Shown: in pieces, positions 30,001 to 42,000 of the stretch | How the letters are laid out: each line of letters opens with the position of its first letter | Position numbering within the stretch: the stretch's first letter is position 1 | Origin: Escherichia coli | GTDB lineage: Bacteria; Pseudomonadota; Gammaproteobacteria; Enterobacterales; Enterobacteriaceae | Direction: 5' to 3' (one strand) | Assembly (NCBI RefSeq): GCF_003334315.1 | Contig: NZ_QOWR01000015.1 | DNA: 64,000 bases | Position numbers: made by a program

Positions 30001-33000
30001 AGTGCCCGACTGAAACACATATCTGCTTTACTCGTATGGACGGCGATCGTCTGGTTATCCACGCCTCCACCCAGGTACCATGGCACTTACGCCGCCAGGT
30101 CGCGCGCCTCGTGGGCATGAAACAGCATAAAGTTCATGTCATTAAAGAGCGAGTTGGCGGCGGTTTTGGTTCCAAACAGGACATCCTGCTGGAAGAAGTG
30201 TGCGCCTGGGCAACCTGCGTGACCGGGCGTCCGGTACTGTTCCGCTACACCCGTGAAGAAGAGTTTATTGCTAACACCTCTCGTCACGTCGCGAAAGTCA
30301 CCGTCAAACTGGGAGCGAAAAAAGATGGTCGCCTGACGGCAGTGAAGATGGATTTCCGCGCCAACACTGGCCCTTACGGCAACCACTCACTCACCGTACC
30401 GTGTAACGGACCGGCGCTGTCGCTGCCGTTATATCCGTGCGATAACGTCGATTTCCAGGTCACCACCTACTACAGCAACATTTGCCCAAATGGTGCTTAT
30501 CAGGGTTATGGCGCACCGAAAGGTAACTTCGCTATCACCATGGCATTAGCGGAACTGGCTGAACAGTTACAGATCGACCAACTGGAAATTATCGAACGTA
30601 ACCGGGTACACGAAGGGCAAGAGCTGAAAATTCTCGGTGCAATCGGTGAAGGTAAAGCGCCGACCTCCGTTCCTTCCGCCGCCAGCTGTGCACTGGAAGA
30701 GATCCTGCGTCAGGGTCGCGAGATGATCCAATGGTCGTCACCGAAACCGCAAAATGGTGACTGGCACATCGGTCGCGGCGTCGCCATTATCATGCAGAAA
30801 TCGGGTATCCCGGATATCGATCAGGCTAACTGCATGATCAAACTGGAATCGGACGGCACCTTTATCGTTCATTCTGGCGGTGCGGATATTGGTACTGGTC
30901 TGGATACTGTAGTGACGAAACTGGCAGCAGAAGTGCTGCACTGCCCACCGCAGGACGTGCATGTTATCTCCGGTGATACCGATCATGCGTTGTTTGATAA
31001 AGGCGCATATGCCTCGTCCGGTACTTGCTTCTCGGGTAACGCGGCGCGTTTGGCAGCGGAAAATCTACGGGAGAAAATTCTGTTCCACGGCGCGCAAATG
31101 TTGGGTGAGCCAGTGGCAGATGTTCAACTGGCAACGCCGGGCGTCGTGCGCGGCAAGAAAGGCGAAGTTAGTTTCGGGGATATTGCCCATAAAGGCGAAA
31201 CCGGCACCGGCTTTGGTTCACTGGTGGGAACTGGCAGTTATATCACGCCTGATTTCGCCTTCCCGTATGGCGCAAACTTCGCTGAAGTTGCCGTCAACAC
31301 GCGTACGGGTGAAATCCGCCTGGATAAATTCTACGCCTTGCTGGACTGCGGTACACCGGTCAATCCAGAGTTAGCGTTGGGACAAATCTACGGTGCCACC
31401 CTGCGTGCTATCGGCCACAGTATGAGCGAAGAGATCATTTATGACGCCGAAGGTCACCCGTTAACGCGTGATTTACGCAGTTACGGCGCACCGAAAATTG
31501 GTGACATTCCGCGTGATTTCCGCGCTGTGCTGGTGCCGAGCGACGATAAAGTCGGCCCGTTCGGGGCGAAATCGATCTCGGAAATCGGTGTAAATGGCGC
31601 AGCTCCGGCGATTGCTACCGCAATTCACGATGCATGCGGCATCTGGTTACGCGAATGGCATTTCACACCGGAGAAAATACTCACTGCGCTGGAAAAAATA
31701 TAAATAATAAATGGCCGCTTCGGCGGCCTGTTTCTCTGTTTGAACGATGACTAAATAGTGACTGCGAAAATGAGATAAGCCGTTCTCAAGGCGTCCTGCG
31801 CCCCAAATTCGTGGGAATTTATTTTACTAATTCAGATGATCAAATTTACTTTAAAAGGAGTGAAGGGATGTCTGATATAAACCATGCAGGTTCTGACCTT
31901 ATATTTGAACTGGAGGATCGCCCTCCCTTTCATCAGGCTCTCGTTGGTGCCATTACCCATCTGTTGGCAATTTTCGTTCCGATGGTAACCCCCGCGTTAA
32001 TCGTGGGTGCGGCCTTACAGCTTTCCGCTGAAACAACTGCCTATCTTGTTTCTATGGCGATGATCGCCTCTGGTATTGGTACCTGGTTACAAGTAAACCG
32101 CTACGGCATCGTCGGTTCTGGCCTACTCTCAATTCAGTCAGTCAATTTTTCATTTGTTACGGTCATGATTGCGCTGGGCAGCAGCATGAAAAGCGACGGT
32201 TTTCACGAAGAGTTAATCATGTCGTCGCTTCTCGGCGTCTCCTTCGTTGGCGCATTTCTGGTTGTCGGATCTTCATTTATCTTGCCCTATTTACGTCGGG
32301 TTATTACGCCTACCGTCAGCGGTATTGTGGTACTGATGATCGGCTTAAGCCTGATTAAAGTCGGCATTATCGATTTTGGTGGAGGATTTGCAGCCAAAAG
32401 CAGCGGTACGTTCGGCAATTACGAACATCTCGGCGTTGGTTTATTGGTTTTAATTGTGGTGATCGGCTTTAACTGCTGTCGCAGTCCGTTGCTACGCATG
32501 GGAGGGATCGCCATTGGGCTATGTGTCGGCTATATCGCATCGTTATGCCTGGGCATGGTGGATTTCAGCAGTATGCGCAATTTGCCGTTAATCACCATCC
32601 CGCATCCGTTCAAATACGGCTTTAGTTTTAGCTTCCATCAGTTCCTGGTGGTTGGCACGATTTATCTGCTTAGCGTGCTGGAAGCAGTCGGCGATATCAC
32701 CGCCACGGCAATGGTTTCCCGCCGCCCCATTCAGGGGGAAGAGTATCAGTCCCGACTGAAAGGCGGCGTGCTGGCAGATGGTCTGGTTTCTGTTATCGCC
32801 TCCGCTGTCGGTTCATTACCATTAACCACGTTTGCGCAAAATAATGGGGTTATTCAGATGACTGGCGTCGCTTCACGTTATGTCGGGCGAACCATCGCGG
32901 TAATGCTGGTTATCCTCGGCTTATTTCCGATGATTGGCGGCTTCTTCACGACCATTCCCTCGGCAGTTCTGGGAGGCGCAATGACGTTGATGTTTTCCAT

Positions 33001-39000: not shown

Positions 39001-42000
39001 GTCATGTACGCAGGTGCAGTCGCTGTTCCTCTTATGATTGGTGACCGACTGGGCCTCTCAAAAGAAGCTATTGCGATGCTCATTAGCTCGGATCTCTTTT
39101 GCTGCGGGATCGTCACATTATTGCAATGTATCGGTATCGGCCGCTTTATGGGGATCCGCCTGCCGGTGATTATGTCGGTGACCTTTGCTGCTGTAACACC
39201 AATGATAGCCATTGGGATGAACCCGGATATCGGCCTGCTGGGGATCTTTGGTGCCACTATCGCCGCGGGTTTTATCACCACATTATTAGCGCCACTTATC
39301 GGTCGCTTGATGCCTTTATTCCCGCCACTGGTTACCGGTGTGGTTATTACTTCTATTGGGCTTAGCATCATTCAGGTGGGTATTGACTGGGCCGCCGGAG
39401 GTAAAGGGAATCCGCAATATGGTAATCCCGTTTATTTAGGTATCTCCTTTGCCGTCTTAATTTTTATCTTGCTCATTACTCGCTATGCGAAAGGATTTAT
39501 GTCCAACGTCGCCGTATTACTGGGGATTGTATTTGGCTTTTTACTTTCGTGGATGATGAATGAAGTCAACTTATCCGGGCTACATGATGCCTCGTGGTTT
39601 GCGATTGTCACCCCGATGTCGTTTGGTATGCCGATTTTCGATCCCGTTTCCATTCTGACCATGACTGCCGTGTTAATCATCGTGTTTATCGAGTCGATGG
39701 GGATGTTCCTGGCACTGGGTGAAATAGTCGGTCGTAAACTCTCTTCACACGATATTATTCGCGGGCTGCGTGTCGATGGCGTAGGGACAATGATAGGCGG
39801 AACGTTTAACAGCTTCCCCCACACGTCATTTTCACAAAACGTTGGCCTGGTTAGCGTGACGCGTGTTCATAGCCGCTGGGTGTGTATTTCTTCGGGAATT
39901 ATATTAATCCTGTTTGGCATGGTGCCAAAAATGGCGGTGCTGGTCGCCTCCATTCCGCAATTTGTGCTGGGCGGCGCTGGGCTGGTGATGTTCGGCATGG
40001 TACTGGCGACAGGGATTCGAATTCTGTCGCGCTGTAACTACACCACCAACCGTTACAACCTCTATATTGTGGCGATCAGTCTCGGCGTTGGCATGACTCC
40101 GACGCTCTCTCACGATTTCTTTTCTAAGTTACCGGCCGTACTGCAACCGCTGCTACATAGCGGCATTATGCTCGCAACCCTTAGCGCCGTTGTGCTGAAC
40201 GTCTTCTTTAATGGCTATCAGCATCATGCTGACCTGGTGAAGGAATCCGTCTCTGATAAAGATTTAAAAGTCAGGACAGTACGTATGTGGCTTCTGATGC
40301 GCAAGCTGAAGAAAAATGAGCATGGAGAATAATATGAATCTTTTAATGCGCGCTATATTCAGTCTGCTGTTGCTTTTTACTCTCTCTATTCCTGTCATTT
40401 CTGACTGTGTTGCAATGGCCATTGAAAGTCGCTTCAAATATATGATGCTACTTTTTTAAATGGTTTTTACCTGTCGGCATCCGCTCAAAACGGGCGGTTG
40501 TCGATAAACGCTCACTTGGTTAATCATTTCACTCTTCAATTATCTATAATGATGAGTGATCAGAATTACATGTGAGAAATTATGCAAACGGAACACGTCA
40601 TTTTATTGAATGCACAGGGAGTTCCCACGGGTACGCTGGAAAAGTATGCCGCACACACGGCAGACACCCTCTTACATCTCGCGTTCTCCAGTTGGCTGTT
40701 TAATGCCAAGGGGCAATTATTAGTTACCCGCCGCGCACTGAGCAAAAAAGCATGGCCTGGCGTGTGGACTAACTCGGTTTGTGGGCACCCACAACTGGGA
40801 GAAAGCAACGAAGACGCAGTGATCCGCCGTTGCCGTTATGAGCTTGGCGTGGAAATTACGCCTCCTGAATCTATCTATCCTGACTTTCGCTATCGCGCCA
40901 CCGATCCGAATGGCATTGTGGAAAATGAAGTGTGTCCGGTATTTGCCGCACGCACCAACAGTGCGTTACAGATCAACGATGATGAAGTGATGGATTATCA
41001 ATGGTGTGATTTAGCAGATGTATTACACGGTATTGATGCCACGCCGTGGGCGTTCAGTCCGTGGATGGTAATGCAGGCAGCCAATAGTGAAGCAAGAAAA
41101 TTGTTGTCTGCTTTCGCGCAGCACAATTAAAAAACCCCGACATTTGCCGGGGTTATGAGCATAACGTAATGCTTATTTTACTGGACGCATCGCCGGGAAC
41201 AGAATAACGTCGCGGATGGTATGGCTGTTGGTGAACAGCATTACCATACGGTCGATACCAATTCCCAGACCTGCTGTCGGCGGTAAGCCGTGTTCCAGTG
41301 CGGTGACGTAATCTTCGTCGTAGAACATCGCTTCGTCGTCACCTGCGTCTTTCGCGGCAACCTGATCCAGGAAGCGCTGCGCCTGATCTTCCGCGTCATT
41401 CAGCTCGCTAAAGCCGTTACCGATTTCACGACCACCAATGAAGAACTCAAAGCGGTCTGTGATTTCCGGGTTAACGTCGTTACGACGCGCCAGCGGAGAA
41501 ACTTCTGCCGGATATTCAGTAATGAAGGTCGGCTGAATCAGATGTGCTTCTGCCACTTCTTCGAAGATCTCGGTAACGATACGGCCCAGACCCCAGCTCT
41601 TCTCAACGTGGATGCCGATAGATTCAGCAATCGCTTTTGCAGAGTCGAAGTTGTCCAGATCCGCCATGTCGGTTTCCGGGCGATATTTCTTGATCGCTTC
41701 ACGCATGGTCAGTTTTTCGAACGGTTTACCGAAGTCCAGCGTCACGTCGCCGTAGGTCACTTCCGTCTTACCGAGAATATCCTGTGCCAGAGTACGGAAC
41801 AGCGATTCGGTCAGCTCGATCAGATCTTTGTAATCTGCGTAAGCCATATAGAGTTCCATCATGGTGAACTCTGGGTTATGACGTACGGAAATACCTTCGT
41901 TACGGAAGTTACGGTTGATTTCGAATACACGCTCGAAGCCACCGACCACCAGACGCTTGAGGTACAGTTCCGGCGCGATACGCAGGTACATGTCAAGATC

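Follow-up and report, generated by a model that had tools for sequence, protein, structure and literature searches.

Gene content of the locus

A window of 64,000 nucleotides of Escherichia coli DNA (contig NZ_QOWR01000015.1 of NCBI RefSeq assembly GCF_003334315.1), the whole stretch analysed here, carries three genes for transporters of the NCS2 nucleobase family, xanQ, ghxQ and uacT, between positions 31868 and 40332, among genes for the catabolism of purines. Cloning and assays of the transporters date from 2005-2013, and the assignment of the reductive urate pathway from 2022-2025. The locus is already known and characterised, and to find its transporters again adds nothing new on transport; the residual novelty is regulatory and consists of a predicted sigma-54 promoter of uacT, for which the evidence is comparative, and a candidate enhancer for the activator YgeV. 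The data are best explained, with high probability, by a locus for purine uptake and urate catabolism that contains two separately wired transport modules, xanQ-guaD-ghxQ and uacT.

The interval 31868-40332 runs from the start codon (ATG) of xanQ to the stop codon of uacT, according to the open reading frame listing and the RefSeq annotation of an E. coli record that is 100% identical. Coordinates were transferred from one identical annotated record and from K-12 MG1655. The gene order is xanQ-guaD-ghxQ on the plus strand, ygfS-ygfT on the minus strand and uacT on the plus strand, and the main genes are as follows.

28833-31703, plus strand: xdhD (transferred annotation)
31868-33268, plus strand: xanQ (ygfO), xanthine:H+ symporter of 466 amino acids, NAT/COG2233 branch of NCS2
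33286-34602, plus strand: guaD, guanine deaminase (guanine to xanthine), between two permease genes
34638-36005, plus strand: ghxQ (ygfQ), guanine/hypoxanthine:H+ symporter of 455 amino acids, AzgA-like/COG2252 branch of NCS2
36041-36529, minus strand: ygfS, 4Fe-4S dicluster ferredoxin-like protein, downstream of ygfT, with HydN-like and AegA N-terminal-like matches
36529-38448, minus strand: ygfT (uacF), Fe-S flavoprotein, divergent from uacT; 1503 bits against the NF009451 equivalog model (cut-off 1154)
38884-40332, plus strand: uacT (ygfU), urate:H+ symporter of 482 amino acids, NAT/COG2233 branch of NCS2
40334-40459, plus strand: yqfG, small open reading frame starting 2 nt past the uacT stop codon (RefSeq annotation only)
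40582-41130, plus strand: idi (transferred annotation)
11525-13303, minus strand: ygeV, sigma-54-dependent activator (bacterial enhancer-binding protein, bEBP) thought to drive the cluster (annotation and literature)

GuaD scores 633.6 bits against TIGR02967 (cut-off 375.4), and the K-12 annotation places the start of its gene 3 nt earlier. The small gene yqfG is probably co-transcribed with uacT. XanQ, GhxQ and UacT are residue-for-residue identical to K-12 MG1655 b2882, b4464 and b2888, and with the same gene order and the same neighbours this is the K-12 locus in another strain of E. coli. The two differ by I22V in GuaD, T81A in YgfS, and S282T and R300C in YgfT (K-12 to window), and by 381 positions in 14 kb when compared position by position, part of which may reflect a shift of register after an insertion or deletion. 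Many RefSeq E. coli genomes contain positions 31500-40600 at 100% identity; of 5426 complete genomes of the species, 5400 show some match to this stretch and 5154 match at least 80% of it.

Three permeases and their place in purine catabolism

That three NCS2 transporters lie in one locus, as the original prediction had it, is borne out: the coordinates are exact and all three proteins match the Pfam family PF00860 (Xan_ur_permease; best of the three, 8.5e-124). Judged from their sequences, the description is correct at the level of the superfamily (PF00860, TCDB 2.A.40), within which there are two paralogues and a remote relative, GhxQ. XanQ and UacT are paralogues (27% identity, E 2e-42) and score 455.4 and 454.0 bits, respectively, against the NCBIfam model TIGR00801, "NCS2 family" (cut-off 291.8). 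The NAT signature motif of transmembrane segment 10 is [Q/E/P]-N-x-G-x-x-x-x-T-[R/K/G]; XanQ carries it as QNNGVIQMTG (residue 324) and UacT as QNVGLVSVTR (residue 318). Among solved structures, their relatives are UapA, UraA and SVCT1. XanQ finds its best solved relative in UapA (5i6c, 7.8e-53), followed by UraA (1.9e-13), and UacT matches UapA (4.4e-30) and UraA (6.1e-30) about equally; in these sequence comparisons the matches to 5i6c and 3qe7, which are 7+7 inverted-repeat structures, span nearly the whole of both proteins. The likeness to UapA of Aspergillus nidulans and UraA of E. coli thus covers the full length and the NAT motif, whereas in substrate range UapA takes both xanthine and urate, XanQ being specific for xanthine and UacT for urate (PMC3809563; PMC6070649).

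GhxQ stands apart. It matches PF00860 at 1.8e-80, with residues 32-415 covering model positions 1-388 of 389; the NAT signature motif was not found in it, it has no match among NCBIfam models, TIGR00801 included, and BLASTP detected no significant similarity to XanQ or UacT (E 0.2-0.4). Its only matches in the PDB are the plant adenine/guanine permeases AZG1 (5.6e-36) and AZG2 (2e-26). This accords with the published division of NCS2 into COG2233 (NAT) and COG2252 (AzgA-like) (PMC6308229; PMC3809563) and with the assignment of YgfQ to COG2252 (PMC3809563; PMC6308229; PMC6070649). Among the AzgA-like permeases, which include GhxP (YjcD) of E. coli, AZG1, AZG2 and fungal AzgA, GhxQ resembles AZG1 in sequence and GhxP in its reported guanine/hypoxanthine specificity (PMC6070649); unlike them, it alone is placed in a catabolic cluster beside guaD, and unlike that of GhxP its deletion gave no base-analogue phenotype (PMC3809563).

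Published assays, as recounted in PMC6070649, PMC3809563 and PMC6308229, assign xanthine to XanQ/YgfO, guanine and hypoxanthine to GhxQ/YgfQ, and uric acid to UacT/YgfU. Since the permeases of the window have exactly the sequences of the K-12 proteins that were assayed, the specificities that had been predicted from the sequence stand, and the gene names with them. The name of one family model is a poor guide to these specificities: TIGR03173 (pbuX, "xanthine permease", cut-off 414.15) accepts the urate transporter UacT at 509.8 bits and narrowly rejects the xanthine transporter XanQ at 413.7 bits, so names taken from this model can mislead on substrate.

The anaerobic urate degradation cluster comprises ygeW, ygeX/dpaL, ygeY, hyuA, yqeA/arcC, ygfK, ssnA, ygfM and xdhD (10.1101/2022.07.24.501321). 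Urate is reduced to isoxanthine by XdhD, YgfK dearomatises isoxanthine, and the remaining enzymes yield pyruvate and ammonia (10.1101/2025.05.19.654654). Both ygfK and ygfT respond to uric acid with strong induction, and YgfT has been reported as needed for formate-dependent use of urate (10.1101/2022.07.24.501321). The hydroxylase genes said to accompany the permeases are indeed there, xdhD and ygfM directly upstream and xdhA with a sigma-54 site upstream of it at 7751. That the locus imports several purines is likewise supported, in that the published substrates fit the adjacent enzymes and guaD lies between two permease genes. The proposal of urate as a key substrate or inducer agrees with the literature on the reductive pathway, on induction of ygfK and ygfT by urate, and on membership of uacT in the YgeV iModulon.

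In the two-module reading, GhxQ of the first module (xanQ-guaD-ghxQ) imports guanine and hypoxanthine, GuaD turns guanine into xanthine, and XanQ imports xanthine, the products feeding XdhABC for oxidation to urate. The second module, uacT, imports urate for the adjacent reductive pathway, in which XdhD and YgfM make isoxanthine and YgfK, SsnA, HyuA, YgeY, YgeW/YqeA and YgeX carry it to pyruvate and ammonia, with YgfT and YgfS supplying electrons derived from formate. A comparable arrangement is the puc regulon of Bacillus subtilis (pucJ and pucK for urate, pbuX for xanthine), where NCS2 urate and xanthine permeases are encoded beside enzymes of purine degradation and are induced by purine catabolites, like the E. 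coli locus. The Bacillus route is oxidative, through uricase, with PucR as regulator and sigma-A promoters. PucJ, PucK and PbuX have been named as relatives (PMC6070649); the E. coli route, by contrast, is reductive (10.1101/2025.05.19.654654) and its regulon belongs to sigma-54 and YgeV.

Might the three permease genes instead have come together by chance, or as the remnant of a duplication, with no functional coupling to the neighbouring enzymes? XanQ and UacT are after all paralogues, the redundant copies XanP and GhxP lie elsewhere in E. coli (PMC3809563; PMC6070649), and deletion of ygfQ was without phenotype in base-analogue tests (PMC3809563). We consider this very unlikely. The three measured substrates differ and fit the adjacent GuaD, XdhABC and XdhD; Citrobacter retains this arrangement, with proteins 83-95% identical; and the ygfT-uacT pairing is kept in four genera. 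E. coli K-12 has 10 NCS2 members in all (PMC3809563; PMC6308229; PMC6070649), and by our own estimate, which is an approximate one, the chance that three of these 10 paralogues would share an 8.5-kb stretch of a 4.6-Mb genome is about 1e-3.

Sigma-54 sites, the predicted uacT promoter and the xanQ-guaD-ghxQ unit

A chromatin immunoprecipitation sequencing (ChIP-seq) study of sigma-54 (Bonocora et al. 2015, PMC4591121) places four sites within the window, at xdhA, ygeW, ygfK and ygfT. For comparison, a position weight matrix (PWM) for sigma-54 was built from 46 ChIP sites outside the window. The four sites and a fifth, predicted element are listed here.

7751: sigma-54 site of xdhA (ChIP-seq, PMC4591121; located by PWM)
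13672-13688, plus strand: sigma-54 site of ygeW (ChIP-seq peak OS30, PMC4591121; PWM 15.84 bits)
23488-23504, plus strand: sigma-54 site of ygfK, GTGGTGCGATTGTTGCT (ChIP-seq peak OS31, PMC4591121; PWM 12.24 bits), for the ygfK-ssnA-ygfM-xdhD operon upstream of xanQ
38495-38511, minus strand: sigma-54 site of ygfT, TATGCCCGTTTATTGCA (ChIP-seq peak OS32, PMC4591121; PWM 6.03 bits)
38799-38815, plus strand: sigma-54-type -24/-12 element CTGGCACTCCACGAGCA (GG-N10-GC), 68 nt upstream of the uacT ATG (pattern match)

The element before uacT has its GG at 38801-38802 and its GC at 38813-38814, on the correct strand and at the correct spacing. Close orthologues of UacT, sought in one genome per species, were found in E. 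albertii, two Citrobacter species, Serratia oryzae, Kluyvera, Pluralibacter and Morganella, and Citrobacter, S. oryzae and Kluyvera retain ygfT and uacT as a divergent pair. When the ygfT-uacT spacers of E. coli, E. albertii, the two Citrobacter species, S. oryzae and Kluyvera were aligned (alignment A2, n=6), most of the spacer proved to have diverged, and its most conserved island was CTGGCAY-N7-GCATG, which is also present in Pluralibacter. Within this island the blocks AAA-CTGGCA and GCATG are invariant and the 7 nt between them vary, which is the GG-N10-GC geometry. The pattern TGGCAY-N7-GCA, whose background rate is 1.35e-5 per position, occurs between -160 and -20 of the start codon in 8 of 8 loci whose UacT is at least 80% identical and in 0 of 72 loci of more distant homologues; the eight loci, in which it is invariant upstream of uacT, represent five genera. 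Morganella uacT has a stronger and differently spelled sigma-54 site (11.6 bits). From this comparative evidence we conclude that uacT probably has its own sigma-54 promoter at 38799-38815.

Several points weigh against such a promoter. The element scores 5.98 bits, which ranks 143rd among 127,968 positions and is the level of chance, the median of the ChIP sites being 16.0 bits (n=46). Its -12 region reads GAGCA and not TTGCA, so that both T's before the GC of the consensus TGGCAC-N5-TTGCW are replaced. Neither the main text nor the supplements of the study give a sigma-54 ChIP-seq peak for uacT (PMC4591121). The main text of the genomic SELEX (gSELEX) paper on RpoN names neither ygfT nor uacT, and its tables, as printed, hold no site between 3,004,270 and 3,043,930. 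A simple scan for TGGCAC-N5-TTGCW with two mismatches gave 45 matches where 42 were expected and is uninformative alone. The uacT site is set apart from background only by the comparison across species, and not by its PWM score.

The absent ChIP-seq peak at uacT (PMC4591121), the silence of the gSELEX main text on uacT and ygfT, the low PWM score and the non-consensus -12 flank all favour a different account, namely that uacT is read by sigma-70 and that CTGGCAY-N7-GCATG is an ordinary transcription factor site or a -35-like element; a conserved TGTGA block 45 nt upstream could then be the CRP site of a sigma-70 promoter. This account is unlikely in our judgement. The invariant blocks are exactly a -24 (TGGCA) and a -12 (GCA) at GG-N10-GC spacing, with a 7-nt spacer that varies; alignment A2 contains no conserved -10 hexamer at sigma-70 spacing, and a sigma-70 scan of 38449-38883 returned no promoter-like site on the plus strand. 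The ChIP-verified ygfT site scores about as low as the uacT element (6.03 bits), and uacT co-varies with the proven sigma-54 operons in the YgeV iModulon.

That iModulon has 13 genes, and its printed list names xdhABC, ygeWXY, hyuA, ygfK-ssnA-ygfM-xdhD, ygfT and uacT, and not xanQ, guaD or ghxQ. Membership of an iModulon is a correlation, and the absence of xanQ, guaD and ghxQ is no proof of separate control, which is a further point against our reading. Expression of ygfT is lower in a ygeV mutant. The ygfT site, whose ChIP-seq fold-above-threshold (FAT) score is low, at 3 (PMC4591121), has sigma-54-like counterparts in the corresponding position in Citrobacter, S. oryzae and Pluralibacter. 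The earlier suggestion that a separate uacT is possibly linked to sigma-54 has gained strong comparative support; the sole ChIP-seq sigma-54 peak in the ygfT-uacT spacer is assigned to ygfT (PMC4591121).

Three further features of these upstream regions were noted. About 45 nt upstream of the uacT element lies a conserved block TGTGA-N6-xCxCA (38750-38765, plus strand), a match to a CRP-like half-site, whose TGTGA and two C positions are invariant columns of alignment A2. Upstream of the ygfT sigma-54 site, at a distance of about 40 nt, is a conserved island, TTTTGCGA...TC (38542-38557; invariant columns 94-109 of alignment A2 in E. coli). Hafnia, Edwardsiella and Aeromonas lack TGGCAY-N7-GCA upstream of their uacT homologues and share a 17-mer, TG(C/A/T)GCA(C/T)G(T/C)T(C/T)TGTGCA, 130-165 nt upstream of these genes, which suggests that a different regulator or an atypical promoter may operate there.

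The other transport module is compact, with gaps of 17 nt between xanQ and guaD and 35 nt between guaD and ghxQ, and is bounded by two hairpins.

31713-31728, plus strand: hairpin GGCCGC-UUCG-GCGGCC, 10 nt past the xdhD stop codon (terminator-like scan; fold -13.9 kcal/mol, z = -3.06)
36011-36034, plus strand: strong hairpin and T-run between the convergent ghxQ and ygfS, with a 9-bp stem, 7 G-C pairs and a T-rich tail

The second hairpin (fold -18.9 kcal/mol, z = -3.39, a stability reached by 0 of 200 shuffles) is the predicted terminator of the xanQ-guaD-ghxQ unit. The first is invariant in E. coli and two Citrobacter species, with varying flanks, and is likely a partial terminator or transcript-end element at the boundary between ygfK-ssnA-ygfM-xdhD and xanQ. 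In the same species the block ATTCAGATGATCAAATTT at 31834-31851, about 20-30 nt before the xanQ ATG, is invariant, in a spacer that otherwise drifts. No sigma-54-like site was found between xdhD and xanQ (best PWM score -0.72), and the first module would be regulated differently from uacT. The sigma-70 promoter scan gave fewer matches than shuffled sequence and nothing useful in the spacers. Between 31600 and 40700 no riboswitch (purine, xanthine or other) or other Rfam family was detected at gathering thresholds, and one match of chance level appeared at E <= 1.

A competitor to separate control is a single sigma-54/YgeV regulon for all three permeases, in which xanQ-guaD-ghxQ is the distal end of the ygfK-ssnA-ygfM-xdhD transcript. 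The genes share a strand with only 164 nt between xdhD and xanQ, the hairpin after xdhD has a poor T-tail, and the scan of the spacer gave no convincing sigma-70 promoter. Against such read-through, xdhD and ygfM are on the YgeV iModulon list and xanQ, guaD and ghxQ are absent; the UUCG hairpin is invariant across genera and the conserved ATTCAGATGATCAAATTT stands just before xanQ; and the sigma-54 cluster is kept together with uacT, but without the first module, in Kluyvera and Pluralibacter. We regard read-through as improbable, though a good deal less so than chance clustering of the permeases. In Pluralibacter uacT lies amid a ygeV-ygeW...ygfK-ssnA...ygfT cluster, and in Kluyvera it follows ygfK-ssnA and ygfS-ygfT, with xanQ-guaD-ghxQ absent from both places. 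It is therefore urate uptake that the pathway keeps as its conserved partner, and the xanthine/guanine module would on this evidence be an Escherichia/Citrobacter addition with its own, non-sigma-54 control. Under the two-module reading, xanQ-guaD-ghxQ lies outside the sigma-54/YgeV regulon, and uacT is physically separate yet tied to the regulon.

A palindrome shared by the sigma-54 promoter regions

Between the divergent sigma-54 sites of ygfT and uacT lies a palindrome with the consensus T(C/A)TCA-N3-TGAGA, copies of which recur in the other promoter regions of the cluster.

38677-38689: palindrome TATCAATATGAGA, about 110 nt upstream of the uacT sigma-54-like site
13459-13471: identical 13-mer, TATCAATATGAGA, 200 nt upstream of the ygeW sigma-54 site
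7641-7653, minus strand: copy with one mismatch, 100 nt upstream of the xdhA sigma-54 site
about 23307/23327 (23307-23339): weaker copies, 150-180 nt upstream of the ygfK sigma-54 site
Comparison loci: 9789 in L004; 2472 and 9780 in L005; 1708, 9771, 12420, 12613 and 20489 in L006

The four promoter regions (ygfT-uacT, xdhA, ygeW and ygfK) share seven 12-mers, compared with none in 20 shuffles, and the background of the palindrome is 0.021 hits per kb. In the spacer alignment it forms the second conserved island, with a perfect TCTCA-N3-TGAGA in S. oryzae and Kluyvera. In Pluralibacter and Kluyvera each of the cluster's sigma-54 sites has a copy 150-215 nt upstream, and in E. coli, Citrobacter, Serratia oryzae, Kluyvera and Pluralibacter together T(C/A)TCA-N3-TGA(G/T)A is found 100-215 nt upstream of every urate-cluster sigma-54 promoter. 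Two observations count the other way: the palindrome at Pluralibacter uacT has two mismatches, and Morganella has no copy with one mismatch or fewer.

Its form and position are those that an enhancer for the bEBP YgeV would have, and we propose the palindrome as a candidate for that role; no published description of a YgeV site was found in the literature searched. Bound at the shared palindrome at 38677-38689, YgeV would activate both divergent promoters, those of ygfT and uacT, and urate uptake would be switched on together with the urate-degrading enzymes. Whether the weak-consensus uacT sigma-54 promoter and the palindrome copies (38677, 13459, 7641 and about 23307/23327) would together form a YgeV switch for xdhABC, the ygeW operon, the ygfK operon, ygfT and uacT is, in our estimation, evenly balanced. 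The arrangement resembles known sigma-54/bEBP regulons in which divergent promoters share one enhancer, such as hycA/hypA with FhlA or zraP/zraS with ZraR (for divergent sigma-54 pairs see Bonocora Table 1, PMC4591121): here two divergent sites stand some 300 bp from each other and the palindrome lies between. It differs in that the site on the uacT side is without ChIP support, both sites score about 6 bits and the YgeV site is only predicted.

If the proposal is true, the palindrome and the uacT promoter define the cis-regulatory code of a gut-relevant urate-degradation cluster in Enterobacterales. Urate degradation by gut bacteria is relevant to gout and hyperuricaemia, and the cluster is already overexpressed, together with UacT, in engineered probiotics. 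The wiring of uptake with the enzymes, and the probable position of the enhancer, would help to explain the poor expression of the native cluster and would aid its re-engineering.

Integration host factor (IHF) was considered as the ligand of the TATCAATATGAGA element and rejected: the element lacks the TTR of the WATCAA-N4-TTR site, and in S. oryzae and Kluyvera it is a perfect palindrome without ATCAA. Only one copy of the palindrome in the window is perfect, TCTCACATTGAGA at 21917-21929; it lies inside the coding region of yqeC, and no sigma-54 site was seen adjacent to it. The gene ygeV has also been renamed IsrR, a protein reported to be strongly induced by indole and to activate LEE (locus of enterocyte effacement) virulence genes in enterohaemorrhagic E. 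coli (EHEC) and Citrobacter rodentium (PMC9426417); this links the control of urate catabolism to indole signalling.

Elsewhere in the window, sigma-54-like sites outside the urate cluster were found at 4426-4442 (plus strand, 13.5 bits) and 62754-62770 (minus strand, 12.6 bits). Positions 1-8000 are low in G+C (0.35-0.45; about 0.52 in the remainder of the window) and contain a tRNA at 6504-6574 (minus strand); this region looks like a horizontally acquired island beside a tRNA gene. Rfam models identified 6S RNA (ssrS) at 63498-63681 (plus strand, 139.8 bits) and an element of naRNA4 (CssrE, a nucleoid-associated RNA family) at 49911-49988 (plus strand, 75 bits).

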